Shown here: one piece after another, positions 33,604 through 56,802 of the stretch
Layout of the letters: each line of letters opens with the position of its first letter
Position numbering within the stretch: position 1 is the first letter of the stretch
Assembly: GCA_041394985.1 (NCBI GenBank)
Contig: JAWLBI010000001.1
Span: 4,292,855-4,356,854, forward strand
Origin: Candidatus Zixiibacteriota bacterium
GTDB taxonomy: Bacteria; Zixibacteria; MSB-5A5; GN15; JAAZOE01
Reading direction: 5' to 3'
DNA length: 64,000 nucleotides
Notes under the pieces: generated by a model
Databases searched by the model: none
Seen by the model: only the letters and a program-made list of their open reading frames with translations
Told to the model about the DNA's origin: nothing
Translations under genes and position numbers: made by a program

Positions 33604-33617
33604 TTGACCTAAGTCAA
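33604..33617. promoter_or_regulatory. candidate Crp/Fnr-family (HcpR/FNR-like) binding site TTGAC-N4-GTCAA upstream of the octahaem cytochrome operon
   Basis: Perfect 14-bp palindrome TTGACCTAAGTCAA. A -10-like GATATT/ATATTA lies about 30 bp downstream, which is class II spacing. The same palindrome type occurs upstream of hcp. Confidence 0.5.
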
Positions 33618-33814
33618 GGAAATCATCGGGCCCGAAGTCGATATTAGTACCGGTAACCGAGTTCACCTAATTATTGACTTTTTTATTGCGGGAGCCGCCA
33701 ATGCGCAATATCATGAAATACGGGCTGGAATCTTCGACCACATCATCCATGACATGCGCTCATTCACATCAGACTTATATCAATGTTCATGATAGAGATA
33801 AGGGGAGTATAATC

Positions 33815-35140
33815 ATGAAGCGGATGGGTATCCTGGCGAGCCTGTTGCTCGCACTGTTTTTAGTATCGGCGCTTCAGGCCGACAATGCCGAGATTGCCGG
33901 AAAATGTATGACCTGTCACAAGGAGAAATCGCCGGGACTGTACAAACAATGGTATATGTCCGAGCATGCCAATCACAAGGTCACCTGTTATGACTGCCAT
34001 CAGGCTCAGAGCGGCGACGCCGATGCGTTCATGCACGAAGGCGCCCTCATTGCCACACTCGTGACGCCGAAGGACTGCGGTAAGTGTCACCAGAAGGAGA
34101 TGACCGAGGTCAGCAATTCCTACCATGCGACCGCCGGAGAAATCCTGGAATCGGCCGATGCCTATCTGGCCCATGTTGCGGCCGGTGAGCCGGTTGCCAT
34201 TACGGGATGCGAAAACTGCCACGGAGGTAAAATTAAAATCGACCCCGCATCACCGAACAAGTTATCATCGAAATCCTGGCCGAACTCGGGAATCGGTCGC
34301 CTGAATCCGGACGGCTCCAAGGGTTCCTGCAATGCCTGTCACACTCGGCATTCGTTCTCAAAAGCTCAGGCGCGTCAGCCGGAGGCCTGTTCCAAATGTC
34401 ACCTCGGTCCGGACCATCCGCAAAAAGAGGTCTATGAGGAGTCCAAACACGGTAATGCCTACTATACACATATTGACCAGATGAATCTTAAATCCGACTC
34501 TTGGGTCGTCGGCGTCGACTATTTCGAGGCCCCGACCTGCGCCACCTGTCATATGTCGGCAACGACTCAATCCGGTGTGACGCATGATGTCGGCAATCGC
34601 ATCTCCTGGACGCTCCGTCCGCCGATTTCCAAGCATAAGGAAAACTGGCAGGAAAAACGCAATAATATGAAGATGGTGTGCACATCCTGTCACGGCCAGA
34701 CATTCGCTGATGGCCATTACTATCAATTCGACGCTGTCGTCGAACTGTATAATGAGAAATTCGCCAAACCGGCTACCGAGATGATGAAGATTATCCGCGA
34801 TAATAAGCTCATGGAAAACCCGGCCAGTTTCAGCAACAAGGTCGAATGGACCTACTGGGAGCTGTGGCACCATGAAGGTCGCCGCGCCCGCCACGGCGCT
34901 GCAATGATGGGACCGGACTATACCTGGTGGCACGGTCTGTATGAAGTCGCCCAGCATTTCTATTTCAAGATGATTCCCGAGGCGCGCGAGTTCAACAATC
35001 CCGAACTGAACGCCTACATCGATAAAGTACTCGCCGATCCTATGCACGAATGGATGAGCACCGACACCAATTCACTCAAGGAAGCCATCCGTTCCGGAAA
35101 GATGCAAAAAGTGTACGAAGAGATGTTCGACAAAAAATAG
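33815..35140 (+). CDS. octahaem c-type cytochrome (HAO/OTR/ONR superfamily-like), secreted
   Basis: Likely start ATG 33815 (RBS AGGGGAG), then signal peptide MKRMGILASLLLALFLVSALQA. Eight CxxCH motifs (CMTCH, CYDCH, CGKCH, CENCH, CNACH, CSKCH, CATCH, CTSCH) in about 440 aa. Confidence 0.75.
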   Translation: MKRMGILASLLLALFLVSALQADNAEIAGKCMTCHKEKSPGLYKQWYMSEHANHKVTCYDCHQAQSGDADAFMHEGALIATLVTPKDCGKCHQKEMTEVSNSYHATAGEILESADAYLAHVAAGEPVAITGCENCHGGKIKIDPASPNKLSSKSWPNSGIGRLNPDGSKGSCNACHTRHSFSKAQARQPEACSKCHLGPDHPQKEVYEESKHGNAYYTHIDQMNLKSDSWVVGVDYFEAPTCATCHMSATTQSGVTHDVGNRISWTLRPPISKHKENWQEKRNNMKMVCTSCHGQTFADGHYYQFDAVVELYNEKFAKPATEMMKIIRDNKLMENPASFSNKVEWTYWELWHHEGRRARHGAAMMGPDYTWWHGLYEVAQHFYFKMIPEAREFNNPELNAYIDKVLADPMHEWMSTDTNSLKEAIRSGKMQKVYEEMFDKK

Positions 35141-35149
35141 GGGTCGACC

Positions 35150-36643
35150 GTGCTTGATAAATATATCAATTTCGTTCGCGGCGTTTCGGTGAACATTGTG
35201 GGAAAGATTGGGGTCGTCCTGACGACCTCGTCTTTTTTCACGTTCGTCCTGCTGGAAGTCGCCCGCATAGCGGGGCTTCTGACCAACGCCTATATCGGGC
35301 TGATAACCTATCTCCTCCTGCCGGCCCTGTTTATCATCGGACTATTGCTTATCCCAATTGGCTGGCGGATGTGGAAAAAACAGACCGGGAAAACGACTCA
35401 ACAATTGCTTTCTGAGCGGTTCGATGATACCGACATCAAGGGTGGGCTGTTCGGTTCCCGATTATTTCTGTCGGTTGGCATATTCACGGTTATCAATATT
35501 ATCTTTCTCGTCGGCGCCAGTTCACGAATGCTCACCTTTATGGACGGCCCGGAATTCTGCGGTACGGCCTGTCACACCGTTATGAATCCTGAATGGGTGA
35601 CCTATCAGCAATCTCCCCATGCGCGCGTCGATTGCGTCGATTGCCATGTCGGCGAGGGAGTCGATGCCCTGATTAACAGTAAACTCAACGGCACCTGGCA
35701 GATGATTTCGGTGACGTTCGATTTGCTGGACCGCCCCATTCCGACGCCGGTGCACCAACTTCGGCCCGCTCGAGAGACATGTGAAAAATGCCACTGGCCG
35801 GACAAATTCTATGGGAGCCGCCTGAAAACGATTACGCACTATGACTCTGACGAACAGTCCACCCGTAAGTTTACGACCCTGAACCTCAAAATCGATGCCG
35901 GGACCGGCGCCAAAAAATCCGGCATTCACTGGCACGTCGCGGCAGAAAACCTTGTTCGCTACGCCTCGGTCGATGATGAGCGCAAGGAAATGATCTGGGT
36001 CGAGGTTTTAGAGCCTGACTGGTCATTCAAGAGATATACCAACAGGCGCCTTAAGGATGTCGATCCTTCGCACGAGAGTATCCGGGTTCTCGATTGCGTC
36101 GACTGCCACAACAGAGCAACCCATATTTATGAGTACCCATCCGATGCTATTGACAGCCGTATTGCGGCAGAGATGATCGACCATTCTCTACCCTATATCA
36201 AGCGCGAGGCGCTCAAGGCGGTATCGGCCCACTATGTCGATACGGCGGCCGCTCGTGAGGGCATCGCCAATAGTATCGCCTCTTTTTATCGTACAACATA
36301 TCCCGAGGTCGCACGCTCTAAGTTCGATGCCATCGATAAATCCATTGCGGCTGCGCAGGCGGTGTATGCCCGAAACATTCATCCGTATATGAATATCACC
36401 TGGGGAAGTTATCCGAACTTTCTGGGACATCGTGGCAATTCCGGTTGTTTCCGCTGTCATAATGATAACATGGTCGATGATGCGGGAACTCCGATTTCGT
36501 CGGACTGCGCACTCTGCCATTCGATTCTGGCCTACGGCAGCGAGCAGGCATTCGAATATCTCAATCCAGCCGACACGGCCTCGAAGGACTACCTGATGCA
36601 CGAATACTTGCGGCAGGAATTTCTGGATTATATTAAGAAGTAA
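35150..36643 (+). CDS. membrane-anchored hexahaem c-type cytochrome (putative quinol-oxidising partner)
   Basis: Two N-terminal TM helices, then six CxxCH motifs (CGTACH, CVDCH, CEKCH, CVDCH, CFRCH, CALCH). Starts 10 bp after the octahaem gene. Confidence 0.7.
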   Translation: MLDKYINFVRGVSVNIVGKIGVVLTTSSFFTFVLLEVARIAGLLTNAYIGLITYLLLPALFIIGLLLIPIGWRMWKKQTGKTTQQLLSERFDDTDIKGGLFGSRLFLSVGIFTVINIIFLVGASSRMLTFMDGPEFCGTACHTVMNPEWVTYQQSPHARVDCVDCHVGEGVDALINSKLNGTWQMISVTFDLLDRPIPTPVHQLRPARETCEKCHWPDKFYGSRLKTITHYDSDEQSTRKFTTLNLKIDAGTGAKKSGIHWHVAAENLVRYASVDDERKEMIWVEVLEPDWSFKRYTNRRLKDVDPSHESIRVLDCVDCHNRATHIYEYPSDAIDSRIAAEMIDHSLPYIKREALKAVSAHYVDTAAAREGIANSIASFYRTTYPEVARSKFDAIDKSIAAAQAVYARNIHPYMNITWGSYPNFLGHRGNSGCFRCHNDNMVDDAGTPISSDCALCHSILAYGSEQAFEYLNPADTASKDYLMHEYLRQEFLDYIKK

Positions 36644-36658
36644 ATTCCGGAAGACCAT

Positions 36659-36692
36659 AAGGCAGATTTTTCCAAAAATCTGCCTTTTCTAT
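36659..36692. terminator. bidirectional terminator hairpin between convergent cytochrome and L,D-transpeptidase genes
   Basis: GGCAGATTTTT...AAAAATCTGCC stem followed by TTTTCT. Confidence 0.6.
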
Positions 36693-37447
36693 TCACTTAT
36701 TTCGTAAGAACCATCTGCATTGATACGAACATCCGGCAGCCGGTGTGTCGTCTCGAAATGATTATAAATCGGCAACAATTCATCCCAGAATGATTTCAGT
36801 CCCACATTGTCTTTGGAGAATCCTGCCATCATGTCGATTTTGGTACTGTCGGTCATACGGCAGGGGAACATATGAACCGGAATCGTTTTCTGCCCATTGC
36901 TTTTGGCATCGACAACAATAAGGTACAATTCCTTGATCGCATTATTGCCGATCGGGATACAGCCTATTGTCACCCTGTTTCCATGAATAAAGATATCTCC
37001 CCCGGGATCGGCGCCGGACTTTCGTATTCTGTCCGACTTGTTCGGATAATCGACGCTGAACGACAAGTGATAACTGCTCGCCGGATTGAACCGGTCAATC
37101 GAATAAACCCCTTCCGGGATTTGCAGATCTCCCTGCCTGCGTTTCGGACCGAGTGTTCCGGAAAATGCCGTGAAGGGATATGCCTTTATCAATCGGAACG
37201 TATCGGCCGAATCGCTTTTTGCCCATAATTCCAGAGATTTCTCGAACTTCAGCGCTCGAATAAAAATCTCGGCCGGCGGATAGGCAACACCGGCCGAGTC
37301 AAATATCTGTTTGATGGATGATTCTTTTTCGGCTCTGGCTTGTCGCACTCGGGGAAATTTCTGTTGCGATTCGGCGAAGTTTTCGGCAAGTGACAATCCC
37401 GCCAATCCAAGAAGGCACAAACCGAAAACAGCAATTATCCGAAACAC
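36689..37447 (-). CDS. L,D-transpeptidase (YkuD) family protein, secreted
   Basis: Signal peptide. C-terminal IHGN...GCIPIGNNAIKELY resembles the YkuD HG...GC(I)..N..I.EL catalytic motif. Confidence 0.5.
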   Translation of the reverse strand: MFRIIAVFGLCLLGLAGLSLAENFAESQQKFPRVRQARAEKESSIKQIFDSAGVAYPPAEIFIRALKFEKSLELWAKSDSADTFRLIKAYPFTAFSGTLGPKRRQGDLQIPEGVYSIDRFNPASSYHLSFSVDYPNKSDRIRKSGADPGGDIFIHGNRVTIGCIPIGNNAIKELYLIVVDAKSNGQKTIPVHMFPCRMTDSTKIDMMAGFSKDNVGLKSFWDELLPIYNHFETTHRLPDVRINADGSYEISE

Positions 37448-37461
37448 GATACCCCTTAGTG

Positions 37462-38625
37462 TTATGCCGACCTGAGGGAATCGACAATATTCAGATACGC
37501 CGCCCGGATGGCCGGCAGTACCCCGCCGACGAATCCCATCACCAGTGCAAAAACCACCGCCGCGATGACGATATTCGTATTCAGGCTGAATCGAAATGCC
37601 ACATCGGTGAAGGTACTCCAGTTCGTCGTAGACACCTCGACCAATTGCAAAAAGTACGATCCAACAATTCCGAATACGCCGCCCAGTAGCGATAGGACAA
37701 CTGCTTCGAGTAGGAACGATGTTAATATTGCGAATCGGCCGAACCCGAGTGTCCGCAGTGTTCCGATTTCTCTTGTCCGGTTGGCCACTGCAGCATACAT
37801 GGTAATCATCGCACCGACGATTGCGCCCAGACTGAAGATGACGCTGATGATCATTCCCGTGATGCCCATAAAGGTGGAAAACATCTCGGATTGCTCCGCA
37901 TAATACACTTTCTCTTTTTTGACATCCAGCGGAAGCCTCCGGTCGTCCTCGATGCGCTGTTTCAGAGCCGCAAACTGCGTCGTATCGGCCATGCGAAAGG
38001 TCAGCGAGGAATAGATTGGTCGTCTGAAGGCATCGGCCATTTGCTGATACTCACCCCAGACTTCTGATTCGAACCCGGAGTCTTCTCCCTCAAAAACTCC
38101 GACTATCGTCCAGTTGCGAGCGCCGAAGCGGACTGTCTCGCCGAGACCGCATCCCTTGAATTTCTCCGCGATCTTGCGACCGGCGATAATTTCGGATCCG
38201 GGATCCTGCCACATCCGCCCCTCGACGATTTTAACATCCGGGCGCAACTCAAATGATTTTTCGGTGATACCCCGGACCGTAACATTGCCGTCCTCATTCG
38301 TCGCGCGAGTCGGAACCGTAATCAGAACAAAAACCTCGTGCGTGATCAGAGGCGTTCCATCCTTGGCCTTGGCGATTTCCGGGAAGGTCTGAACTATTTG
38401 TCCCTGTTCCAGATTTATAATCGACATGACTTCCGATTGTGATGCCTTGCGGATACAAATGACATTATCGTCATTGCCGGTACTGACCAGCGTCTCGGTC
38501 ATGCCGTTCGTGAGCATCTGTGACCCGCAGAATACGAAAACGACCAGGGCGATACCGAAAATCGTCAAACCTGATGTCACCTTGCGGTTCAGGATATTTC
38601 TGAATGTATAGCTTGGAGGAATCAT
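37462..38625 (-). CDS. ABC transporter permease (FtsX/MacB-type)
   Basis: N-terminal TM helix, large periplasmic domain, C-terminal FtsX-like 3-TM bundle. 387 aa. Confidence 0.75.
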   Translation of the reverse strand: MIPPSYTFRNILNRKVTSGLTIFGIALVVFVFCGSQMLTNGMTETLVSTGNDDNVICIRKASQSEVMSIINLEQGQIVQTFPEIAKAKDGTPLITHEVFVLITVPTRATNEDGNVTVRGITEKSFELRPDVKIVEGRMWQDPGSEIIAGRKIAEKFKGCGLGETVRFGARNWTIVGVFEGEDSGFESEVWGEYQQMADAFRRPIYSSLTFRMADTTQFAALKQRIEDDRRLPLDVKKEKVYYAEQSEMFSTFMGITGMIISVIFSLGAIVGAMITMYAAVANRTREIGTLRTLGFGRFAILTSFLLEAVVLSLLGGVFGIVGSYFLQLVEVSTTNWSTFTDVAFRFSLNTNIVIAAVVFALVMGFVGGVLPAIRAAYLNIVDSLRSA

Positions 38626-38637
38626 GATTCGTCCCTT

Positions 38638-39795
38638 TTAATCCACTACTCGCAAACCGTCAACGATTCTTATGCGCAGCGCCCGCTGTATCGGGAAAAT
38701 CGCCGCAATGAGACCGACAATGACAGCCGTTATCAAACAGACTATAAACGTTGTCGGTTCGACCGTAAATCCCGGGAAGAACTGCTTGAGTCCCTCCTTC
38801 GCGACATTCGCGGCCATTTCCAACAGTCCCATTCCGATAACACCGCCGATGATGGCAATCAACAGTGATTCACCCAGAATCAGACCTGCCAGATGATAGC
38901 CTCGGAAACCGAGTGTCTTCATAAACGCATTTTCAGAAATTCGCTCGCGAGCCGTCATCGTCATAGTGTTAACGAGCACCATCAGAATAACACCAATGAT
39001 GAGGTACGATACGATTCGCAGGCCGAGAATAATCGCACTCGACAATTCGATAAAGCTCATCTGAAATTCCTTTTCCGTCTCGGTTCTGGTCTCGGCCCAA
39101 GAGTTATCGAATTGTTTATCGACTGCGGCACTTATTTGCGCGGAACGACTCGGATCATCGATTTGTAATGCGTACCAACCAACCTCACCGGCTCGTCCCG
39201 GTGACTGCTGTCGCATCGTCTCGTCAAGATAATCGTGGCGCATATAAAAAATCGTCTCATCCGTATCCGTCCGGGCGCCGGTGTAAATTCCTCGGATGAT
39301 AAAATCCCAGTCCCCCGGATACACCGTTCCGATAAGCGTCACTTTATCGCCGATCGACCATCCGAACCGGTCGGCCAGCCCCTGTCCGACAATTACCGCT
39401 TTCCGCTCATTCTTAAATGCCTCGAACTGCTCCGGGGAAATTAAAAATTCCGGGAAGATATCGAAATAATTCGTGTGATCGATACAGAACTGCGGAAAGA
39501 AATTCGACGGATCCACATAGAAACCGCCGAACCAGTTGGCGTATGTCACCGCCTTGACGCCTTCGACCTTCAACAGTCGCTCTTTATACGACATGGGAAG
39601 TGTAAAAACGATGGAAACAGCGTGGCGGGTAATTAGTCTGTCGGGCGCCGCTGCCCTCGCCCCGGCATACCAGGCGGAAATGAATGTCTTGATGAGCCCG
39701 AAGGCCATCACCGCGAGGGCAATGCCGAGAATCGTCAAGAACGTCCGCAGCTTATGCCGAAAGGCGTTTTTATAAACCAATTTAAAGACTTTCAT
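38638..39795 (-). CDS. ABC transporter permease (FtsX/MacB-type)
   Basis: Same architecture as 37462..38625. 385 aa. Confidence 0.75.
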
Positions 39796-40475
39796 CGGTC
39801 CAGCACTCCCTTGTTCAAATGGCGAATCAGTTCGGCCTTTTCGGCCGCACTCGGATCGTGCGTAACCATGATAATCGTCTTATTAAATTCCTTATTGAGC
39901 CGTCCCAGCAGCGTCATAATTTCCTCGGCCGACTGCTTATCCAGATCACCGGTCGGCTCATCGGCGAGAATAATTGACGGATCGGATACGATGGCCCGCG
40001 CAATCGCAACGCGCTGTTCCTGACCGCCGGACAATTGCCGGGGATAATGTTTCATCCTGTCACCCAATCCGACTATTGATAGGGCCGTCTCGACATGCTG
40101 GCGGCGCTCCTTTCCAGACAGATTGGTCAATAATAGCGGCAATTCGACGTTCTCGTATGCCGTGAGAACCGGGAGCAGATTATAAAATTGAAAGACAAAT
40201 CCGATATGCCGGGATCGCCACTTGGCCATATCGCCATCGGATAAGCGGGAAATATCCTCTCCGGCCACGGATAAATGGCCCGCCGTCGGTTGATCAATAC
40301 CGGCAAGCAGATTCAATAGTGTTGTTTTACCCGACCCGGATGGTCCCATCAGGGCCAAGAATTGCCCGGTCGGTACATCCAGATCGATTCCGTGCAAAAC
40401 GGGTATTTCCATCGCCCCGCGAAAATATGATTTCGTCACACCGGAGAGCTTAACCATTGTCTCAGACATACACAT
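39792..40475 (-). CDS. ABC transporter ATP-binding protein (MacB/LolD-like)
   Basis: Walker [10 protein letters not shown], signature LSGGQEQR, Walker [12 protein letters not shown]. 227 aa. Confidence 0.88.
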
Positions 40476-40482
40476 CTATCCC

Positions 40483-41676
40483 TTATTGAGAAATTTCTAT
40501 TTTGTCGCCAGATTTCAGGCCACCCGGGGGAGACAGCACAACAGTCTGTCCCGCCGACAGTCCCGATACGATTTCGGTTTCATCTCCCATCCGACGACCG
40601 ATAGTGATCGCCTGCTGCGAGACATATTCGCCGTCGACGACAAATGCCACCGTCTGGCCGTCTCGGGATGTAATCGCACCATGATCCACGACTAATACGG
40701 GCTCGACATATTGATCCTCGCCGGATTTCTCCGGAAGGAAATTCACGCGCGCCGACATTTCCGGCAATACCTTGTCATCCAGATTGGAAAACGCAACTTT
40801 GACCATCACGGTCGCCCGCGAGCGATCCGCAGTAGGAACAATTTTCTTGACGAATCCGGCATAAGTCACATCCGGATAGGCGTCTAAAATGATTTCACAC
40901 GGCGCGCCGATCTTAACCTTTTGAATATTCGACTCGGACACATCGGCCTCGACCTCCAGTGACCGCATATCCGCAATCGTTACGACTGCGCCCCGGGAAG
41001 ATGCCGACGATGCAAATGGCGCGACCATTTCACCGACATCGGCATTTTTTGTCAGGACTGTTCCATCAAACGGCGCCTTGATAATTGTGTACTCAAGGTC
41101 CACTTCGGCGGCTCGCACAGCCGCCCGCGACGCCTTTACGGATGCCGCCGCCTTGGCAAACGCGGCAGTGGCTGCTTCCACGACTTCAGCAGTCGTATAA
41201 TCGGATTCCCTGAGTTTTATCTGCCGCCGCAGGTTGAGCTCCGTCTCGATCGAATCGGCCAGGGACAAGCTCAGATTCGCCTCGGCAATTGCAAGCTGCG
41301 CCTTGATATCTTCGTTGTACAACTCGGCCAGTACTTCATCTTTCGTGACGACATCGCCCTCTTCGACGTTGAGGACCCGCAGTCGCCCGGTCGCTTTCGA
41401 TGCGACCGCCGCCTTTACCTGGGCGACGACATAGCCGGTCGCCACCAACTCCGCTGTAGCATTACTGCCGGTAATCGTATAGGCCGTGGCCGTCCGAACC
41501 TTCAGTGACGGGCGGATTTCTCGAATCGATGCCTGATAGGCAAAATATCCGATAATGATCACCGGAACCCAGAGAAGGTGGAGCCATCGCTTCCATCGGC
41601 CGGGGGGTTTTGTTTTTTTTGAGCGGTCTATTTTCAATGCGGATAAATCCGCACCATGAGCATTCGAATCCGTCAT
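40483..41676 (-). CDS. efflux transporter periplasmic adaptor subunit (MacA/HlyD family)
   Basis: N-terminal TM anchor, coiled-coil hairpin, beta-barrel and MP domain pattern. First gene of the minus-strand efflux operon. Confidence 0.75.
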   Translation of the reverse strand: MTDSNAHGADLSALKIDRSKKTKPPGRWKRWLHLLWVPVIIIGYFAYQASIREIRPSLKVRTATAYTITGSNATAELVATGYVVAQVKAAVASKATGRLRVLNVEEGDVVTKDEVLAELYNEDIKAQLAIAEANLSLSLADSIETELNLRRQIKLRESDYTTAEVVEAATAAFAKAAASVKASRAAVRAAEVDLEYTIIKAPFDGTVLTKNADVGEMVAPFASSASSRGAVVTIADMRSLEVEADVSESNIQKVKIGAPCEIILDAYPDVTYAGFVKKIVPTADRSRATVMVKVAFSNLDDKVLPEMSARVNFLPEKSGEDQYVEPVLVVDHGAITSRDGQTVAFVVDGEYVSQQAITIGRRMGDETEIVSGLSAGQTVVLSPPGGLKSGDKIEISQ

Positions 41677-41906
41677 ACATTCACCTGAAGTCTAAAGCTG
41701 CGCGTGTGCTGCCCTATTATACATAAAATGGCGACCATCGCCATCACATATTCTCTCAACCTACGAATCAGGGCAGAAAAGGTTGCCGCCGAAACGACGG
41801 CCACATTATTCGCTCGTAAGTATACTATTTTCTTATTGTTAATGCAATACTCCGCCGGCGTATCTTATCCGGCGGAGTTTTGTTCTGATATTTTGACTTG
41901 TGCCGA

Positions 41907-46913: not shown

Positions 46914-46924
46914 GCGGATGCACG

Positions 46925-48139: not shown

Positions 48140-48163
48140 TGATAACCGGAAAGGACATTAATC

Positions 48164-48856
48164 ATGAGAACTATTCTTATCACAGGAGCCAGCGGCGATA
48201 TCGGTCGCGCCATCGCGGAACGCCTGGCCGACCGTGACACGACTCTTATTCTCCACGGTCGCAATATCACCAAACTGGAAAAAACATGTTCCGCGGCCCG
48301 CGAAAAGGACGCCAAAATCATCGCCTTCCCCGGCGATTTCCATCGCGAGAAAGACCTGAATAAATTTATCGCTCGCGCCGCCAAGGAGCAGATCGATGTA
48401 ATCATTCACAGCACCGGACTGGCCATTGTTGAGCCGTTCGAGAAGATTGCTCTCGATGCATGGAACAAGGCCCTGCACCTCAATGTGACCGTCCCGTTTT
48501 ATATCACCCAGCAGCTCATCGAACATCTCACGGACAATGGCATGATCGTCAACATCATGTCCGTTGCCGCCAAAACGGGATTTCCCGGCTGGACCAGTTA
48601 CTGCACCGGTAAATTCGCCCTCGACGGATTTTCGAAAAGCCTCCGCGAAGAACTCCGGGCGAAAAAAATCCGCGTCAGCAATATCTATCCGGCCGCGACC
48701 GATACCGGGCTCTGGGATAGCATTGACGGCGATTGGAATCGCGATAAGATGATGAAACCGACCGATGTCGCAGAGGCTGTCGCCTTCGCCATTGCCCAAC
48801 CTCCGCACGTGTCAGTCGATGCCATTGAGGTCAATAATACCGGCGGTAATCTCTAA
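48164..48856 (+). CDS. SDR family oxidoreductase (sepiapterin-reductase-like candidate)
   Basis: TGASGDIGRAIA Rossmann motif. Y-x-x-x-K (YCTGK) catalytic motif. 230 aa. Directly follows folE and PTPS. Confidence 0.7.
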   Translation: MRTILITGASGDIGRAIAERLADRDTTLILHGRNITKLEKTCSAAREKDAKIIAFPGDFHREKDLNKFIARAAKEQIDVIIHSTGLAIVEPFEKIALDAWNKALHLNVTVPFYITQQLIEHLTDNGMIVNIMSVAAKTGFPGWTSYCTGKFALDGFSKSLREELRAKKIRVSNIYPAATDTGLWDSIDGDWNRDKMMKPTDVAEAVAFAIAQPPHVSVDAIEVNNTGGNL

Positions 48857-49008
48857 AGCATATAAAGAGATACGACCATATTTCGATGAACCTTTTCATG
48901 GAATTTGCCGTCTTATAACTATTCTTTGCCGGAAATGTCGGGATGGGGCAATACTGAAGTAGAGACAAAACCGACAATCCGACAGGTTTTCTATGTGGGA
49001 GGCAAACC

Positions 49009-51357
49009 ATGTTACAGCGGGCTAATGTCGCAATATTCATCTCGATCTGCCTTGTCATTCTTCTCAGTTCGTATTCTCTTTCTCTTGCCACGATGCCGAA
49101 TAATGCCTATGAACCGAGATTCAAACCGGAAGTCACAATTTCCCAAAAGACCGGCGACATAAAAATCGACGGACACCTTCATGATCCCGGATGGGCCGGG
49201 GCTGCCATGATCGATCACTTCGTGGAAAACGAACCGGGCGACCAAATTAAACCGCCGGTGGATACGAAGGCATATCTGACGTATGATAAAGACTATCTGT
49301 ACGTCTCAATTGTCTGCTATGACAACCCGGAAGATATCCGCGCAACGCTATGCGAACGAGATCAGATGTATTCCGATGACAACGTCGGTTTCTTTTTCGA
49401 CACCTACGGCGACGCTTCCTGGGCATATACCATGAATGTCAACCCATACGGGGTGCAGGCCGACGCCATCTGGACGAATGGATTCGGCGAGGACAGTAAA
49501 TACGATTTGGTGTGGGAATCGGCCGGGCAGATTACGGATTCAGGTTATCAGGTGGAAATAGCCATACCCTTCTCGACGCTTCGCTTTCCCAACAAACCGG
49601 AACAAAACTGGCGCATCGAATTCTGGCGCCACCACTACCGCGATGTCCACTACAACCTCTCATGGTGCGCTTATGACAGAAATGAACCATGCTGGGCGTG
49701 TCAATGGGGTTATCTGAAAGGCATCAAAGACGTCCAGCCGGGCAAAGGTATCGAAATCATTCCCGCATTCGTGGGATATCAATCCGGCTTCGCAACCGAG
49801 TTGGATGCCGGCACCCCCAATATCGTCGATTCCATCGGATTCGAGAATGAAGATGCCGACGGTGAAATCGCACTGAATATCAAGTACTCACCCGTTTCCA
49901 ATATCACGATCGAGGGCTCGTACAATCCGGACTTCTCGCAGGTCGAGGCCGATGCCGACCAGATTGACGTCAACACGACCACGGCACTGTGGTTTCCTGA
50001 AAAACGACCGTTCTTCCAGGAAGGCAGCGACTTATTCAAGACTATTTTCGATGCCGTCTATACGCGCACGATCAATGATCCTGATTTCGCCTCGAAATTC
50101 ACGGCCAGAATCAATCGCACCAGTATTGCCGTTTTGAGCGCTCACGATGAGCATACACCTATCCTCATGCCGTTCGAGGAGCGCAGCAAAACTTTCACTA
50201 TCGGCAAATCATACAACAACTTCGTTCGAATCAGGCAGGCATTCGGAGAAAACTCGCAATTCGGAGCATTGATTACCGATCGACGCTATGAAGGCGGCGG
50301 TTCGGGTTCGGCATTCAGTCTAGACGGATCATTCCGGCTCAGCCAGAAATTCCGCCTGATGGTACAGTCAATTGCCAGTTATACCGAGGAACCGGATGAC
50401 AGCCTTTTAACATCTGGACTTTCAATTTATGATAAGACCGTAGACTCTTCGGTCGCATTCAATCAGTTTTACTACGATGCCGACCGGAACCATACGGCCG
50501 GATTCGATGGCGAATCATTCTGGGGACACTCCTTTATCGCCCTGCTCGATTACAGTATCAGAGACCTTTATATCAGCAGCCGGTTGTCGGAAATAAGTGA
50601 AAACTTCCGTGCGGAAAACGGGTATCTGCCTCGCAATGATCGCCGTCAGGCAAGTATTGTCATATCTAAGGACTTTCGCGCCGACCATGGATTGATAAAG
50701 ACAATCAGTCCGCAGTTCTTCGCAGCCCGCATCTGGAACATGGATGGACAGATTAAGGACGAATGGATAAACATTGAATTGCCGACATACTTCAGAAAAT
50801 GGCAGTCCTATATGCACCTCAACTTGCTCCTCAGCCGCGAGAACTATGGCGGCAGACAATTCGATAACATCTGGGGAATACACAACTGTTTCCAGGTACA
50901 GGGGTTGAGCAAAAACATCCAATTCGGCGGTTCGGTCGACTATGGCAATCGCATTGCCCGAAATGACTTTGTCATGGGCAGGGAACTGCAACTGTCCGGC
51001 TGGGTCGACGTGCGGCTGTTCAGTCGCCTGTTATCGGAGTTTAATTATTCATATATCCAAAGCCGCAACAGTGATACCGACGACTTGCTCTATCTGGGCT
51101 ACATTCTCAGAAATAAAATTAGTCTGCAGCTCAATCGCGAGTTATCAATTCGCCTTGTTACGCAGTTCAATCAATTCAACAATGCATGGGATATTGACCC
51201 GCTGATCACGTATCGCCTGAGCCCCTTCTCTCTGTTCTATATCGGCACAACATACGATTATATACGCTATGACAATTATCAGACGATCGATAACAGCACC
51301 TATAAACTGGCGGCGCGCCAGTTCTTCATGAAACTCCAGTACATGTTCCAGATATAA
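49009..51357 (+). CDS. CBM9-like/DUF5916-type large secreted or outer-membrane protein
   Basis: Signal peptide. The N-terminal ~230 aa are a carbohydrate-binding family-9-like domain (DG.LDD..W......F...P.....P...T.....D...LY.....D...). A long beta-rich C-terminal region follows. 782 aa. Confidence 0.4.
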   Translation: MLQRANVAIFISICLVILLSSYSLSLATMPNNAYEPRFKPEVTISQKTGDIKIDGHLHDPGWAGAAMIDHFVENEPGDQIKPPVDTKAYLTYDKDYLYVSIVCYDNPEDIRATLCERDQMYSDDNVGFFFDTYGDASWAYTMNVNPYGVQADAIWTNGFGEDSKYDLVWESAGQITDSGYQVEIAIPFSTLRFPNKPEQNWRIEFWRHHYRDVHYNLSWCAYDRNEPCWACQWGYLKGIKDVQPGKGIEIIPAFVGYQSGFATELDAGTPNIVDSIGFENEDADGEIALNIKYSPVSNITIEGSYNPDFSQVEADADQIDVNTTTALWFPEKRPFFQEGSDLFKTIFDAVYTRTINDPDFASKFTARINRTSIAVLSAHDEHTPILMPFEERSKTFTIGKSYNNFVRIRQAFGENSQFGALITDRRYEGGGSGSAFSLDGSFRLSQKFRLMVQSIASYTEEPDDSLLTSGLSIYDKTVDSSVAFNQFYYDADRNHTAGFDGESFWGHSFIALLDYSIRDLYISSRLSEISENFRAENGYLPRNDRRQASIVISKDFRADHGLIKTISPQFFAARIWNMDGQIKDEWINIELPTYFRKWQSYMHLNLLLSRENYGGRQFDNIWGIHNCFQVQGLSKNIQFGGSVDYGNRIARNDFVMGRELQLSGWVDVRLFSRLLSEFNYSYIQSRNSDTDDLLYLGYILRNKISLQLNRELSIRLVTQFNQFNNAWDIDPLITYRLSPFSLFYIGTTYDYIRYDNYQTIDNSTYKLAARQFFMKLQYMFQI

Positions 51358-51377
51358 ATTTCAAAATTTCAGCGACA

Positions 51378-51413
51378 TAAAAAAAGGGCCGCGTTGTGAA
51401 ACGGCCCTTTTTT
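51378..51413. terminator. bidirectional rho-independent terminator
   Basis: A7 tract, then GGGCCG...CGGCCC stem, then TTTTTT. Sits between convergent genes. Confidence 0.75.
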
Positions 51414-51487
51414 CAAGTGCAAACAGGTATGTATGTGCACAAGAGAGGATTCGTGGGTGGCGTATGTCCCCGTGCGCCATCAATAAC

Positions 51488-52741
51488 TTATTCGTACCGC
51501 AATGCTTCGATCGGGTCGACTCGCGTCGCACGCCAGGCCGGATACAATCCCGCGATGACTCCCGTTCCGATCGAGACAGCCATCCCGATCACCGTCCACA
51601 GTGGCGACAGATAATAATGCCACTCCAACGATGTTGTGACAATCAACCCGACGATAGCTCCGAACACGATACCGACGACACCCCCCATCCCGGTCAGCGT
51701 CCCGGCCTCGACTAAAAACTGGAAGAGAATATTTTTCTTGCGCGCTCCGAGCGCCTTGCGCACCCCGATCTCTCTCGTCCGCTGCGTTACCGCCACCAGC
51801 ATGATGTTCATGACACCGATAACGCCCACCAAGAGCCCAACGCAGGCAACGGACACGGCGACCAGCCGAGCTATCCCGGTAATCTCGCCGACTTCATCCC
51901 GCAGGGAGTCCTGTGTTTCAATACCGAAATTGTTTTCCTCACTCGGGCGCAATTGCCGCACTCGCCGAAGGGCATTGACGACCTGATCCATCGCCTCGCC
52001 GAACTGTGTTCGCGAAACCGCGCTGACCAGCAGATACACGCGCTCAACATCAGGATACAACCGCTCGAATGTCGTCATCGGGATGTAGATAAAATCATTT
52101 TCGCTTATCCCGAACAGATCATCAATCTCCTCCTGCACGCCGATAACGGTGAACTCCCAGCCGTTTACTCGGATCACCTTGTTGATGGCATCGGCTCGGT
52201 CCCCGAACAGTTCATCCGCTACCGCCGGTCCGATGACAGTCACCCGAGCGCCTCGGCGCAAATCGTTGTCATCGATAAAGCGCCCGTGCGAGACATCGCG
52301 ATTCGTGACGATCGCCTGTTCCGGCCAGCAGCCTCGAAAATCATCGGGATTGCGAATTTCCTTATCACCATATTTCGCGACATTGCGCCAGGATTTTTTC
52401 TCGGGTGATACCGCTTTAACCAGCGGACACATATCCCGGATCGCATAGGCTTCGTCCATCGTGATATTCTTGCGCTTGCGCTGTTCTTCGGTCAGATTAT
52501 CGAAATCGGTATTCTCATCCCACTTGGATATGTACATGACATTCTTGCCGATTTTTTCGATGGAATATTCGACATACTGATTGAATCCGTCCATGATGGT
52601 ATTGACGATAATCACCGCGCCGACACCGATCATAACGCCCAGGATCGTCATAAACGACCGGAATTTATTCGAGCGCACGGCATCCATGGCCAGCAGGATG
52701 CCCTCTTTCATCTCGTCCGTCGAATGAAACAGTTTATTCAT
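51488..52741 (-). CDS. ABC transporter permease (FtsX/MacB-type)
   Basis: 417 aa with the same TM / periplasmic domain / FtsX architecture. Start overlaps the upstream permease stop. Confidence 0.75.
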   Translation of the reverse strand: MNKLFHSTDEMKEGILLAMDAVRSNKFRSFMTILGVMIGVGAVIIVNTIMDGFNQYVEYSIEKIGKNVMYISKWDENTDFDNLTEEQRKRKNITMDEAYAIRDMCPLVKAVSPEKKSWRNVAKYGDKEIRNPDDFRGCWPEQAIVTNRDVSHGRFIDDNDLRRGARVTVIGPAVADELFGDRADAINKVIRVNGWEFTVIGVQEEIDDLFGISENDFIYIPMTTFERLYPDVERVYLLVSAVSRTQFGEAMDQVVNALRRVRQLRPSEENNFGIETQDSLRDEVGEITGIARLVAVSVACVGLLVGVIGVMNIMLVAVTQRTREIGVRKALGARKKNILFQFLVEAGTLTGMGGVVGIVFGAIVGLIVTTSLEWHYYLSPLWTVIGMAVSIGTGVIAGLYPAWRATRVDPIEALRYE

Positions 52742-53966
52742 AGGTCAATGCCTTTATCGGATCGAGTTTCGCCGCTTTACGCGCCGGATAAATACCGAAA
52801 AATATCCCTACGCCCGACGATATCCCCAATCCCAGGATAATCGCCAATGTCGTCGGAGCGATATAAATATCCATAACACTGTTGAGTATGTACGCACCAA
52901 GTTTGACGCCCAACGCCAGGCCGATAACGCCTCCGCAAAACGACAGGATCACCGATTCGTACAAAAACTGCATCATGATCTTTCCGCGGCTGGCTCCGAG
53001 AGATTTACGAATCCCGATTTCCCGCGTCCGCTCGGTCACCGATATCATCATGATGTTCATGATGACGATACCGCCGATAATGATTGACAACAGCGGCAGA
53101 GAAATCATGATAACCCGGAATGCCGCCGTGATATCATTGATGAAGCTGAGAACATTGTCAGGAGTGAAAATGATAAAATCATCCTTCGCCTCGTATGGGA
53201 CATGCCGCATCGAGCGCAGGACGACACGGACCTGGTCCATCGCGGCTTCGCGGCGTTCCAGCGTCTTGGCGCTGATGACCAAAACGACAGGATCTCCCGG
53301 CTGCTTAAACACTTTTTGATGAGTCGATATCGGAATAATAATGCACTCATCGATGCCGTTCACGATTTCGTTATCGAGTTTCTCAATGACGCCGATAACG
53401 GTAAACTCATGGGGACCGACGCGGATTTGCTTACCCAATGGATCCTCATCCCGAGACTGAAAAAACTTATCGTATACCTTGTACCCGATAATCGCCACAT
53501 GCTTTCGCATGGCATCATCGGTTTCGGTGATGCCGCGCCCCATAATGAGGTCCAGTTTGCGGGTACTTAACAAATTCGGTGTTTCGCCCCGAATTTCCAC
53601 CCACCGCATCCGCTGATCACCGTATTTCAGATGGTCATTTTCAAATGCCTCGGCGCCGACCTGGTCGCAGTCGGGACAACCTCGCTTGATCGGTTCGATT
53701 AAGTCGACGGTCAGCTTCTTACGCTTCAGCAGGCGAAGATAATCATCCCAGGAAACATTGAATCCGAAACGGCTGACGATAAACGATCGCGGGCCCATGG
53801 TCTCGAAGATATTTTCTATCGATGACTGCATCCCCTCGACCGAGGACACGATCGCGATCACCGATGTCACTCCCATGACCATACCAAGGACCGTCAAAAA
53901 CGACCGCAGACGGTTGGCCCACAGAGCGCCGAAAGCCTCAGGAATGATGGACAACAATACTCTCAT
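52734..53966 (-). CDS. ABC transporter permease (FtsX/MacB-type)
   Basis: 410 aa. Paralogous to 51488..52741. Confidence 0.75.
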   Translation of the reverse strand: MRVLLSIIPEAFGALWANRLRSFLTVLGMVMGVTSVIAIVSSVEGMQSSIENIFETMGPRSFIVSRFGFNVSWDDYLRLLKRKKLTVDLIEPIKRGCPDCDQVGAEAFENDHLKYGDQRMRWVEIRGETPNLLSTRKLDLIMGRGITETDDAMRKHVAIIGYKVYDKFFQSRDEDPLGKQIRVGPHEFTVIGVIEKLDNEIVNGIDECIIIPISTHQKVFKQPGDPVVLVISAKTLERREAAMDQVRVVLRSMRHVPYEAKDDFIIFTPDNVLSFINDITAAFRVIMISLPLLSIIIGGIVIMNIMMISVTERTREIGIRKSLGASRGKIMMQFLYESVILSFCGGVIGLALGVKLGAYILNSVMDIYIAPTTLAIILGLGISSGVGIFFGIYPARKAAKLDPIKALTYE

Positions 53967-53981
53967 ACCTGCTCCGCCGCC

Positions 53982-55343
53982 CTACAAGGATATCGATTCG
54001 ATTTGTTCGGCGATTCGCTTACCGGAGTTTTCGTCAATCGAAACGGCTTCTCCTTCGGCAAGACGCCGGAGCGTCTGATACGAACCGGAGATAACCGTAT
54101 CGGTCGGCTGAATTCCATCCAATACTGCAATGTTGCGCTCATCGGCAATACCGGTCATAACCTGTTTAAAGACGGCTTTGCCCTCTTTAATGACAAAAAC
54201 GCCATCCAATTCGACCATCGTACGTTTTTTGCCGATTGTCTTTTCAGCCGAGGTATTCGAGCCGACACTCGACGCTACAGCAAAAGATGCATTGATGCCG
54301 CCTGCTTGAGCCGTCTCGACCGGCGCCTCTACACCCTCGGGCAGAGAATCGACATCGAATTCCCGCATCACTACCGCCGCATATGGAATCAAAAGCGCAT
54401 CCGGTGAATACGCGGTCGTAATATCGGTCGTCGCCGACATACCCGGTCGTATGCCATCGATTGATTTGTCGAAGCGCACCTTCACGAGGAAATTCGTCGA
54501 ATAGTCCTCGCTCCCTTCGCCGATCACGCGAGCCGAGTTTCCGATTTCGACGACCGTGCCGGCAAACGAAGTGTCGCGGAAAGCATCGACACGGATTTTT
54601 GCCATCTGGCCGAGAAATACCTTGGCGATTTCGGTCTCGTCGATATCGACTTCAACCTCGAACACCGATAAATCGGCGATCGTCATCAGTCGTTTTCCCT
54701 GCGTATACGAGGTCTGCGCCTGAGCGATTTCACCGGCTTCCGCATTCAAAAACGTGACGAATCCGTCCATCGGTGAGCGAATCGTTGTCTTGGTCAGATT
54801 ATCCGCGGCCTTATCAAGAATGGCGCTGTTGATGTTAACCTGCGCCAGCCAGGCATCGTAATTGGCCTTGGATGATTCATAGATATAAGTTGCATCGGCA
54901 TACTCGGTTTCGGAAATCAACTTGCCGTTGAACAATCGCGTCTGCCGTTCGAATTCCCGCTCGTCCTTGTCGAACTGGGCTCGGGCCGCCGCGAGACGCG
55001 CCTTTGTCTCATCGAGCGAAAACTGCGCCTGATGCAAATCGGATTGCAACTGGACGGTATCCAGCGTCATCAGAAGCTGTCCTTTGTCGACGAAATCCCC
55101 CTCATTGACATGCAATCCGACAATTTCCGCCGACACCTCGGCGGAGATATCGACTTTCGTCTGCGGCTGGATGCGCCCGGAAGCCGTCACCGTTTCGGCG
55201 ATATCATCGATATATGCCAAATCGGCCTGTACCAATGTTTTTGTATCGCCATTCTGCTGTAGGCTTACGACAGCAATCACCGCAACGACAACGACAATCG
55301 CGCCGCCGATCCACAACCATTTTTTCTTTCTTTTTTTTGCCAT
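53982..55343 (-). CDS. efflux transporter periplasmic adaptor subunit (HlyD/MacA family)
   Basis: N-terminal KKRKKK plus a TM anchor, then a coiled-coil and beta-barrel layout. 453 aa. Confidence 0.75.
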   Translation of the reverse strand: MAKKRKKKWLWIGGAIVVVVAVIAVVSLQQNGDTKTLVQADLAYIDDIAETVTASGRIQPQTKVDISAEVSAEIVGLHVNEGDFVDKGQLLMTLDTVQLQSDLHQAQFSLDETKARLAAARAQFDKDEREFERQTRLFNGKLISETEYADATYIYESSKANYDAWLAQVNINSAILDKAADNLTKTTIRSPMDGFVTFLNAEAGEIAQAQTSYTQGKRLMTIADLSVFEVEVDIDETEIAKVFLGQMAKIRVDAFRDTSFAGTVVEIGNSARVIGEGSEDYSTNFLVKVRFDKSIDGIRPGMSATTDITTAYSPDALLIPYAAVVMREFDVDSLPEGVEAPVETAQAGGINASFAVASSVGSNTSAEKTIGKKRTMVELDGVFVIKEGKAVFKQVMTGIADERNIAVLDGIQPTDTVISGSYQTLRRLAEGEAVSIDENSGKRIAEQIESISL

Positions 55344-55581
55344 GACACACCCTATCTGTTTGCACTAAAGGTACATATAACGTTTGAGAAGGAATCGGCA
55401 GTTTGAAGGCCGCGATCGGGTACCCAATTGTATTGGACTGGCTTTGCAAATAAAAGTTGCAAAAAACTCGAAAAAGACCCAGTTTTATACTGGATTCCGG
55501 AATCGAAAATATACACCTTGCACTACCCGTACTGCTGACGTATCATATGAAGACACAGGATTGGACTTTAGGGAGGATTTC

Positions 55582-55989
55582 ATGAAAAGGCTTTCACTGC
55601 TGCTGGTTCTGACGATAATTTCGGCCGTGTTTTTAACAATTGCCTGTGACGACGAAGCCGACAAGAGCTATCTCAATCCCTTTACGCCCGATCCGAATGA
55701 CATAGATCCGCCCACCGTCTCAATCGTATCCCCCGCCGACAGCTCGGTTGTCCCCAGAGACGACAGCGTCCTCATTACCATCAACGCCAGTGATGATACC
55801 GGGATTCGCCGCATCTATCTGTCGATAAATGATGTACTTGTCTATGACCAGGTGGATGCTCCATATGAATATTATTGGGATACCAGAACCCTAAGCCCCG
55901 GGGTAGGATATAAGCTTTGCGCCTATGCGCACGATAACGGCGGCAAAGTGACTGAAACCTGTAATACTGCGATCATTGAACTGAAATAG
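55582..55989 (+). CDS. small lipoprotein with Ig-like (Big-type) fold
   Basis: True start ATG 55582 (RBS GGGAGG). Lipobox LTIAC. PPTVSIVSPADSSVV...ASDDTGI pattern typical of bacterial Ig-like domains. Confidence 0.5.
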   Translation: MKRLSLLLVLTIISAVFLTIACDDEADKSYLNPFTPDPNDIDPPTVSIVSPADSSVVPRDDSVLITINASDDTGIRRIYLSINDVLVYDQVDAPYEYYWDTRTLSPGVGYKLCAYAHDNGGKVTETCNTAIIELK

Positions 55990-56122
55990 AGCGCCGAGAT
56001 CACGGACCGATACTACGTAAAGACATCACAATAAAAAAAATTCCCCACGGCGCGTTTATTATTGCCTTTTAGACCCATTTTTTAGTATCTATGCCGTGCA
56101 CTATATGTGAAAGGATGAAGTC

Positions 56123-56686
56123 ATGAAACGATTTTTAATAACAACCTGCCTGCTCTGCCTCCTCGTACCGGCCCTGATGGCCCAATCCGACGAGGAAAAA
56201 GTCCAGGCTGTCATGCATGCGGATGCGATCGACTGGAACAGTCTGGCCGATTGTCTTCCGGATGAAGCCGACGATATGGATGTAAGCGATGTCGACGGCG
56301 GCACCATGTCGATGGCCGACCCCACTAATCCGGGCAGCAAATTCAGCTATTCATTTGCCGAGCGTACCTACACGAAGGGAGATAACGGTATTATTCTCCG
56401 TATCACCGATACCGGCTACAGCCAGTTTCTCACGATGCCGTATATGATGGCATTCGAAATGGATACACCCGACGCGACAATCAAAAGCGTAAAAGTCGGC
56501 GACCGCGACGCCAAATTCATCCAGAATAAGGAAAAAGGTAAGGTAATCTCCACGCAATACCTGATTCTTATCTCCGAGCGTGTTCTGGTCATGGCGGAAA
56601 ATGACGGCGGGGCATCTAAGGACGAAATCGAATCGATGTTGAAGAAAATCGATTTCGAAAAACTCACGAAACTCGCCGCAAAGTAA
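56123..56686 (+). CDS. hypothetical secreted protein
   Basis: Signal peptide ending in a cleavage site of the form ALMAQS. A terminator follows. No recognisable motif. Confidence 0.45.
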   Translation: MKRFLITTCLLCLLVPALMAQSDEEKVQAVMHADAIDWNSLADCLPDEADDMDVSDVDGGTMSMADPTNPGSKFSYSFAERTYTKGDNGIILRITDTGYSQFLTMPYMMAFEMDTPDATIKSVKVGDRDAKFIQNKEKGKVISTQYLILISERVLVMAENDGGASKDEIESMLKKIDFEKLTKLAAK

Positions 56687-56706
56687 GAAAAAACAAATCG
56701 TAAAAG

Positions 56707-56741
56707 GGCGCGATCGAATCTCGGATCGCGCCCTTTTTTGT
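56707..56741 (+). terminator. rho-independent terminator
   Basis: GGGCGCGATCGA...TCGGATCGCGCCC stem followed by TTTTTTGTTT. Confidence 0.8.
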
Positions 56742-56788
56742 TTAATAACTCTCTTTTTTAACAAGAATATCGCACTTCCTCATCTGCT

Positions 56789-56802
56789 TTGACCTGAGTC
56801 AA
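56789..56802. promoter_or_regulatory. candidate Crp/Fnr-family (HcpR-like) binding site TTGAC-N4-GTCAA upstream of hcp
   Basis: Perfect palindrome TTGACCTGAGTCAA centred about 80 bp upstream of the hcp ATG. A TACACT -10-like hexamer lies about 30 bp downstream, which is class II geometry. Confidence 0.55.

Follow-up and report, generated by a model that had tools for sequence, protein, structure and literature searches.

The described systems closest to the locus considered here are the regulons of HcpR, a Crp/Fnr-family regulator of hcp and frdX (Rodionov 2004, PMC545781; Rodionov 2005, PMC1274295). Profile 2, that of HcpR1, has the consensus wyTTGACnnnnGTCAArw and was described for Geobacter, Desulfuromonas, Desulfotalea, Synechocystis and Anabaena, with hcp, frdX, nrfHA, napC and cytochrome genes as its targets (PMC1274295). 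The sites given in Table S1 of that paper include those of Synechocystis norB (tTTTGACtTAaGTCAAgg), G. sulfurreducens hcp (ccTTGACCcAcGTCAAgg), nrfHA (tgTTGACtTgaGTCAAAc) and G. metallireducens napC (tTTTGACCTgcGTCAAgg). No mention of hao is made in either of the two papers or in Table S1, and the single paper in the searchable literature that names both HcpR and hydroxylamine oxidoreductase (HAO) draws no connection between them. A second relevant system is nitrite ammonification by the reverse hydroxylamine:ubiquinone redox module (reverse-HURM), or epsilon-Hao, as described for Nautilia profundicola and the Campylobacterota (Hanson 2013, PMC3701875). The model has been taken up for mats rich in hao and hcp, two genes that are found together in abundance in anoxic sediments and mats (PMC8940962). 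The subject of this report is a stretch of 64,000 nucleotides from a Candidatus Zixiibacteriota genome (contig JAWLBI010000001.1; hereafter, the window), in which the palindrome TTGAC-N4-GTCAA is found upstream of an operon for an octahaem HAO-like cytochrome and again upstream of hcp.

A first-pass annotation of the window had reported two 14-bp dyads of this type and had taken them for the boxes of an HcpR-like Crp/Fnr regulator. Both are situated exactly as reported, box 1 (TTGACCTAAGTCAA) at 33604–33617 and box 2 (TTGACCTGAGTCAA) at 56789–56802, and they are the only exact matches to TTGAC-N4-GTCAA on either strand of the window, in which 0.06 copies would be expected. Two or more exact copies were observed in none of 100 dinucleotide-preserving shuffles. 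When up to two mismatches were allowed, 32 box-like matches were obtained, as compared with 26.5 by chance, so that the signal is limited to the perfect copies. The boxes were also scored with a 20-nt position weight matrix trained on 74 sites, all of them outside the window. Box 1 scored 25.4 bits in the + orientation, and box 2 scored 19.2 bits (+) and 24.0 bits (–). The next-best match falls in the coding sequence of hcp, and its score of 13.6 bits is in the range of the shuffles. Both boxes match all 10 core positions of the published HcpR1 consensus, so the assignment of the motif is in agreement with the literature, and box 1 with its flanks (caaTTGACCTAAGTCAAgga) is practically identical to published HcpR sites.

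A scan of GTDB genome contigs with the HAO protein yielded 80 loci (1.37 Mb; the loci collected for comparison carry L numbers) from Zixibacteria, Ignavibacteria, Calditrichia, Acidobacteriota (Holophagae and Thermoanaerobaculia), Eisenbacteria, GN15, Gemmatimonadota and others. A NapC-like gene is situated immediately 3′ of HAO in approximately 73 of them. The 80 loci contain 32 exact boxes, 18 of which are found in the 400 bp that precede the HAO start, a region that represents 2.4% of the sequence; most of the others lie upstream of an Alginate_exp-type porin gene preceding HAO, or of a gene for an frdX-like ferredoxin. All perfect 5-N4-5 palindromes were then enumerated, with no prior assumption as to the motif. 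It is apparent that TTGAC-N4-GTCAA is the most enriched of these upstream of the first gene of the HAO or porin-HAO unit, with 24 copies in about 30 kb as against six in the other 1.27 Mb. This enrichment is approximately 155-fold (binomial p = 3e–34, with the loci treated as independent), and the runner-up palindrome is represented by four copies. The upstream totals are slightly overcounted (three loci have truncated first genes), and the enrichment figures are therefore conservative. Three of the six copies found elsewhere precede frdX. With one mismatch allowed, the box is present upstream in 34 of the 80 loci, as compared with about 2% of 300-bp windows taken at random.

The two closest syntenic relatives of the window are L163 and L164, whose HAO proteins are 86% and 83% identical to that of the window. 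In an alignment of the three upstream regions, the only long invariant stretch is an 18-nt block, ATTGACCTAAGTCAAGGA, which consists of the box and its flanks. This block is unchanged although L163 has a different upstream neighbour.

The corresponding scan of metagenome contigs with the Hcp protein provided a further 80 loci (602 kb, 56–68% identity). Nineteen exact boxes were found in these loci, of which 12 are within 300 bp upstream of hcp (approximately 37-fold enrichment, p = 1e–12) and four more precede frdX. A box with no more than one mismatch was observed in 31 of 76 hcp loci. The distance from the box centre to the hcp ATG is mostly 73–121 bp, and the 79.5 bp measured in the window fits that range. 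The recurrence of the box upstream of hcp in many unrelated genomes bears out the earlier designation of hcp as an HcpR target. The first-pass annotation had also named a pattern that would speak against a shared regulon, that is, a frequent motif with no positional bias. Across approximately 2 Mb of related loci the opposite was found, as the box is strongly position-biased and is not frequent.

Other genes preceded by the box in the relatives encode frdX-like ferredoxins and NapH-like polyferredoxins. In L025 (217–1970), a box precedes a gene for a small COG1917-type cupin, followed by a polyferredoxin gene, and in L016 (5408–7318) a box precedes the gene for a DUF438-hemerythrin-PAS_10 protein, together with that for a DUF1858 protein. 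The hemerythrin/DUF1858 and cupin/polyferredoxin genes are, to judge from their boxes, likely to be further members of the regulon. A region of L168 (9580–9930) belongs with these boxed genes of L016 and L025. The boxed genes of the relatives agree with the published content of the HcpR regulon, and the data presented to this point argue that the two boxes of the window belong to a real, conserved HcpR-type regulon.

For an analysis of promoter geometry, 76 sites were aligned on the box, each oriented toward its downstream gene. Conservation between box and gene is confined to a tAnanT-like hexamer that spans +29.5 to +34.5 relative to the box centre, in which A is present at +30.5 in 66 of the 76 sites and T at +34.5 in 61; in addition, a weak C followed by a purine is seen at +40.5/+41.5. 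A –10 element at this fixed spacing places the box centre at –41.5. An operator at –41.5 is the defining arrangement of class II promoters activated by Crp/Fnr proteins. The hexamers in the window conform to the alignment. GATATT (33640–33645, + strand), for the HAO operon, and TACACT (56825–56830, + strand), for hcp, both start at +29.5 from the box centre, and each has an A at +30.5 and a T at +34.5. On the conserved geometry, transcription would start at 33652 (+ strand; box centre +41.5) for the HAO operon and, from the same spacing, at about 56837 for hcp. No equivalent –10 hexamer was found on the opposite side of either box. A plausible –10 element about 30 bp from each box, and class II activator geometry, had both been proposed in the first-pass annotation; the hexamers in the window and the fixed distance kept in 76 related sites uphold the two proposals.

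A sigma-70 scan revealed no –35/–10 pair at either promoter of the window, and ordinary sigma-70 promoters were accordingly rejected for both sites. The absence of such a pair is to be expected, since an activator would stand in for the –35 element; it fits activator dependence but proves nothing by itself. The alignment thus supports, at both sites of the window, a predicted class II Crp/Fnr-type promoter layout in which the box takes the place of the –35 element. The flanks of the aligned sites are also asymmetric: the promoter-proximal side reads GTCAA(G/A)G, G occupying +8.5 in 60 of the 76, and the distal side is without a mirror-image C. The published HcpR sites likewise show this flank (PMC1274295), which may represent a contact with sigma region 4 or an extended half-site. 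In box 1 the flank (33618–33620) faces HAO.

As to the regulator itself, no Crp/Fnr gene was found in the window by tblastn. A profile hidden Markov model of 21 regulators, run with filters off against all open reading frames of the window of at least 50 aa, gave a best E value of 0.11. The earlier statement that the window encodes no such regulator therefore stands. Candidate regulators are, by contrast with the window, encoded beside the boxes in relatives. These proteins are 225–235 aa in length, with cNMP_binding and HTH_Crp_2 domains. Orthologues (46–71% identical) are found 2–5 kb from HAO in 12 of the 80 HAO loci, including L016 and L019 of the Zixibacteria, and remoter homologues (26–45%) are encoded divergently from or beside hcp or frdX in a dozen or so of the 80 hcp loci. 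In L024, whose HAO is 77% identical to that of the window, the order is box, porin, HAO, NapC-like gene, the gene for a 235-aa regulator, box, frdX and polyferredoxin. Boxes directly flank the regulator gene in this locus and in L030, L052, L051, L063, L165 and L168. In two of these, L051 and L063 of the Ignavibacteriales, a single cluster that contains three boxes comprises the genes for Hcp, polyferredoxin, regulator, FrdX, porin, HAO and the NapC-like protein. Stand-alone modules of regulator and frdX are present in the Zixibacteria, in L165 with TTGACCTAAGTCAA, a 14-mer identical to box 1, between the genes, and in L168 with TTGACCTGAATCAA. These modules show how the regulator of the window organism can be encoded elsewhere in its genome. 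The regulator genes of L024 and L165 are situated at 12790–13497 and 5822–6478, respectively.

The recognition helix of these regulators reads x-E-T-L-S-R in all 21 aligned proteins from related loci, with Glu at the position equivalent to CRP 181, and position 180 is occupied by S, P, I, G, L, A or Q, never by Arg. The combination of a residue other than Arg at 180 with Glu at 181 has been tied to T, rather than G, at position 3 of the motif (PMC1274295). The best solved homologue of the regulators is DNR of P. aeruginosa (3dkw), matched over the full length with an E value of 4.7e–29; FNR (E about 1e–11), CRP, NtcA and CooA are much weaker structural matches. None of the NCBIfam equivalog models reaches its cut-off against the regulators, and some of the regulators carry the JGI annotation 'dissimilatory nitrate respiration regulator'. 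With DNR/HcpR1-like regulators encoded beside the boxes in relatives, Zixibacteria among them, the proposal of Crp/Fnr-type, HcpR-like control is sustained. NsrR boxes are AT-rich inverted repeats that are unrelated to TTGAC-N4-GTCAA. NsrR was set aside as the regulator, given that the box is of the Crp/Fnr type and that cognate Crp/Fnr regulators were found.

Taken together, the sequence comparisons suggest, with a probability of roughly 85%, that boxes 1 and 2 are operators of one activator from the HcpR1/DNR clade within the Crp/Fnr family, with its gene outside this contig, which would co-induce the operon of HAO-like and NapC-like genes and hcp. A dimer of this activator would bind TTGAC-N4-GTCAA at about –41.5 of two promoters that are devoid of a –35 element, and would recruit RNA polymerase by a class II mechanism. 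The first promoter would drive a bicistronic operon encoding a periplasmic octahaem HAO-like cytochrome and a membrane-bound, NapC/NrfH-like, quinol-oxidizing partner, and the second a monocistronic hcp, with both units induced together. The trigger would most plausibly be nitric oxide (NO) or nitrite-derived nitrosative stress, sensed via a haem cofactor as in DNR; haem-based sensing has been suggested for HcpR1 of D. desulfuricans (PMC5701242). The putative reductive HAO-like enzyme and its partner would reduce nitrite or hydroxylamine (NH2OH) in the periplasm, and the removal of NH2OH or NO in the cytoplasm would fall to Hcp. We infer the presence of the regulator in this organism, the positive sign of its action and the NO/nitrite signal, the last of these because the regulators are homologous to DNR and because of the content of the regulon.

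In the alternative that fares best, the protein bound to the boxes is an FNR proper, an oxygen sensor with a [4Fe-4S] cluster held by four Cys residues, and the two units are under general anaerobic rather than nitrosative-stress control. The FNR box, TTGAT-N4-ATCAA, differs from TTGAC-N4-GTCAA at one position in each half-site, the T/A variant is present in 14 of 76 left and 11 of 76 right half-sites, and FNR, too, typically acts from a class II position. The discriminating position is, however, occupied by C/G in 62 and 64 of the 76 half-sites, respectively. The regulators encoded adjacent to the boxes have no conserved four-Cys cluster of the FNR type, and are closer to DNR than to FNR by the E values given above. 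Moreover, the boxed genes (hcp, frdX, hemerythrin and cupin) represent a nitrosative-stress set and not a general anaerobic one. Control by FNR proper is thus considered improbable.

Marginally less probable still is that the same HcpR-like protein acts here as a repressor or dual regulator, so that both units are derepressed rather than activated. There are precedents, in that repression has been proposed for sat/apsAB of Desulfovibrio and for HcpR2 of D. desulfuricans (PMC545781, PMC5701242). Yet each box in the window overlaps neither the –10 element nor the start, and instead occupies the fixed –41.5 position in place of a –35 element where no sigma-70 pair is detectable. By the same logic, activation of hcp-frdX was predicted by Rodionov (PMC545781). 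A coincidental or non-regulatory origin of the two palindromes, for example as relics of repeats or recombination, might be read into the presence of only two sites in the window and the chance-level frequency of matches with up to two mismatches, but it is very hard to reconcile with the expectation of 0.06 exact copies, the enrichment upstream of HAO and hcp, the fixed spacing to the –10 element and the persistence of the box as an invariant island in diverged intergenic DNA.

Several observations do weigh against activation of both units by a single HcpR1/DNR-clade protein. No regulator gene is present on this contig. Among the examined loci of HAO and hcp, approximately 57% are without a box at one mismatch or fewer; the link between box and target is therefore common but not universal, and there are other schemes of control. 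The distance of box 1 from the start codon is unusually large (204 bp, as compared with 85–95 bp in most of the Acidobacteriota loci), and in box 2 the GTCAArG flank, which is usually promoter-proximal, is on the distal side (56786–56788). Finally, the HAO cassette is about 70–77% identical across phyla. This suggests horizontal transfer, in which case the loci are not independent and the p-values are inflated. The spacers and flanks are nevertheless unconserved, which argues for selection on the box despite the non-independence of the loci.

Box 1 is situated in a 437-bp gap between a divergent operon, which consists of an NfeD-like gene (32856–33377, – strand) and a flotillin (Band_7) gene (31185–32816, – strand), and the HAO unit on the plus strand. 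The flotillin/NfeD pair (31185–33377) is present in L164 and absent from L163. In the latter a CoA_binding_2 gene adjoins the region of the box (9350–9730), and synteny breaks just upstream of the box. The box centre is 204.5 bp from the HAO ATG at 33815, and the implied 5′ leader is about 163 nt in length. In many relatives a porin gene (Alginate_exp family, outer membrane) is situated between box and HAO, to give the unit porin-HAO-NapC-like; examples are L024 (8588–9871), L003, L004, L008, L010, L012, L030, L046, L051, L052, L055 and L063, among others. The window and its closest relatives have no porin gene and instead have the long untranslated leader. An RNA element in this leader was considered and rejected: Rfam gave nothing at the gathering threshold in the window and nothing at E ≤ 1 in 33500–33900, and the predicted fold is weaker than that of shuffled sequences (z = +1.82). 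A second conserved island, TAT(C/T)(A/C)TGAAATAC(A/G)GG, is found in the leader at 33709–33727 and is common to the window and the two closest relatives (approximately 9892–9910 in L163 and 3857–3875 in L164). In a Calditrichota locus, TTGAAATACAGG is found 147 bp upstream of HAO (L072, approximately 7270–7285). The island could be another regulatory site; its interpretation as a conserved open reading frame was dismissed, as L163 has CTG in place of ATG.

The HAO-family cytochrome c gene (33815–35140, + strand) encodes a protein of 441 aa with a signal peptide, eight CxxCH motifs and a match to PF13447 (E = 1e–27). The best solved relative of the protein is 4qo5 (E = 8e–46), deposited as a hypothetical multihaem protein, and below it among the PDB matches are HAO, HOX and hydrazine dehydrogenase (HDH) entries. 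The eight CxxCH motifs and the HAO-type family and structure matches place the protein in the octahaem HAO family, with local alignments to N. europaea HAO that span residues 169–304 only. Oxidative HAOs are distinguished by a tyrosine crosslinked to haem. The nearest homologues are in Zixibacteria metagenome-assembled genomes (76–86% identity). Nine bp after HAO is the start of the gene for a membrane-anchored, NapC/NirT/NrfH-like multihaem cytochrome (35150–36643, + strand; 497 aa), with five CxxCH motifs and one CxxxCH (CGTACH). It matches PF03264 and TIGR03153 (NrfH), both under the family cut-off, and the 497-aa protein does not attain the cut-off of any curated family model. This HAO partner is much bigger than NrfH, as its N-terminal NrfH-like region is followed by about 280 extra residues with more haem motifs. 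The operon ends in a terminator-like hairpin with a 12-bp stem (36659–36686, + strand). One locus of the comparison, L053 (Melioribacteraceae), has two divergent HAO paralogues (7474–8742, – strand, and 9998–11320, + strand), with frdX and polyferredoxin genes between and around them; no box with up to one mismatch was found in the 500 bp preceding any annotated gene of that locus.

Box 2 sits between hcp and a strong hairpin terminator with a 14-bp stem (56702–56737), which insulates hcp from the upstream gene. The hcp gene (56875–58551, + strand; ATG at 56875) encodes a hybrid cluster protein/hydroxylamine reductase of 558 aa that matches PF03063 (Prismane) with an E value of 3e–165 and scores 804.7 bits against NCBIfam NF003658 (hydroxylamine reductase), for which the cut-off is 367. 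A hairpin with a 15-bp stem downstream of hcp (58609–58643, listed on the – strand) is the probable end of the monocistronic unit. Directly downstream, in convergent orientation, is a stand-alone gene for a response-regulator receiver domain (58704–59156, – strand; about 150 aa, without an output domain); nothing ties this gene to the regulon. Further operators in the window were sought among matches with one or two mismatches (e.g. at 6148, 41893, 45000 and 57088), but these are at chance level and either intragenic or badly placed. The match at 57088–57101, GTGACCAACGTCAA, is a one-mismatch look-alike inside hcp that encodes the peptide VTNVNF. The same look-alike repeats in many loci (e.g. 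at 4865 in L084, 966 in L091, 2057 in L094 and 5214 in L134), and it is a predictable false positive in genome-wide scans for HcpR boxes.

The operator type, the clade of the regulator and the status of hcp as a target were already known, mostly through comparative prediction. What is new is the inclusion of the HAO-like/NapC-like operon as a conserved member of the regulon in several phyla, the spread of the regulon over Zixibacteria, Ignavibacteria, Acidobacteriota, Eisenbacteria, GN15 and Gemmatimonadota, and a class II spacing that is sharply conserved. The regulon, as predicted in 2005, comprised delta-proteobacteria and cyanobacteria, and several other phyla are hereby added to it. The shared operator is a solid and useful result, if one that is unsurprising to a specialist. 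There is as yet no settled role for the non-oxidative HAO-like enzymes, and the shared operator, as that of an activator of the NO-sensor type, offers a concrete and testable link between HAO and Hcp: it predicts co-induction of the HAO-like operon and hcp by nitrite or NO. The box together with a –10 element at +30 provides a simple genomic marker of the regulon in uncultured phyla such as the Zixibacteria, and the predicted promoter coordinates are precise enough for work with reporters and electrophoretic mobility shift assays.

A broader proposal is put forward tentatively. It is possible that the HcpR-type box moves together with a mobile cassette of HAO-like and NapC/NrfH-like genes through at least six phylum-level lineages of bacteria from anoxic sediments, and that with hcp this cassette constitutes one NO/nitrite-inducible pathway. 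The cassette would often be extended by the outer-membrane porin, frdX, polyferredoxin and hcpR itself. In the pathway envisaged, nitrite would be reduced by the octahaem enzyme, and toxic NH2OH or NO would be removed by Hcp. Genes for HAO-like proteins and hcp are among the most abundant nitrogen-cycle genes of anoxic mats and sediments (PMC8940962). If the proposal is true, it would describe a regulated and widespread version of reverse-HURM nitrite ammonification or detoxification, and would make the shared operator the first evidence, at the level of regulation, for cooperation between the two most abundant 'orphan' nitrogen-cycle genes of such habitats.

Of the systems to which the locus can be compared, that of HcpR2 (Porphyromonas gingivalis, Bacteroides, Clostridia and Thermotogales) likewise involves NO/nitrite-responsive control of hcp by a Crp/Fnr protein, and P. 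gingivalis HcpR binds haem (PMC12750200). HcpR2 belongs, however, to another branch of the family, with the box GTAAC-N4-GTTAC or species-specific variants and with Pro, Ser or Gln at position 181, whereas Glu181 and TTGAC are found here (PMC1274295). DNR of P. aeruginosa, a haem-based NO sensor, shares with the regulators of the relatives the recognition helix E-T-x-S-R and is an activator at FNR-like boxes. Its box, TTGAT-N4-ATCAA, and its targets, the nir, nor and nos denitrification genes (PMC1274295), are different from the TTGAC-N4-GTCAA box and the hcp, frdX and HAO-like genes of the present regulon.

The correspondence with the HcpR1 regulon is more extensive. The consensus, the GTCAAgg flank and the core targets hcp and frdX are the same, as are the polyferredoxin (COG0348), cupin (COG1917), hemerythrin, and NapC/NrfH-type and other c-type cytochromes among the remaining members. 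The HcpR1 regulator resembles those of the relatives in its Crp/Fnr fold, the lack of the FNR Cys cluster, a residue other than Arg at 180, Glu at 181 and a frequent location beside hcp or frdX. The hosts are different, being here the six non-proteobacterial lineages named above. The pentahaem NrfA/NrfH of the HcpR1 regulon has its counterpart here in an octahaem HAO-like protein with a NapC/NrfH-like partner that has six haem motifs, and in the window, unlike the HcpR1 regulon, the regulator and frdX are unlinked to the targets. The reverse-HURM model, for its part, is a biochemical and physiological one, and the putative reductase of the window has 4qo5, not a Campylobacterota enzyme, as its nearest solved relative. 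The components are the same in kind, as both systems comprise an octahaem enzyme of the HAO family, of reductive type (putatively so in the window), a partner of the NapC/NrfH family, and Hcp as hydroxylamine reductase.

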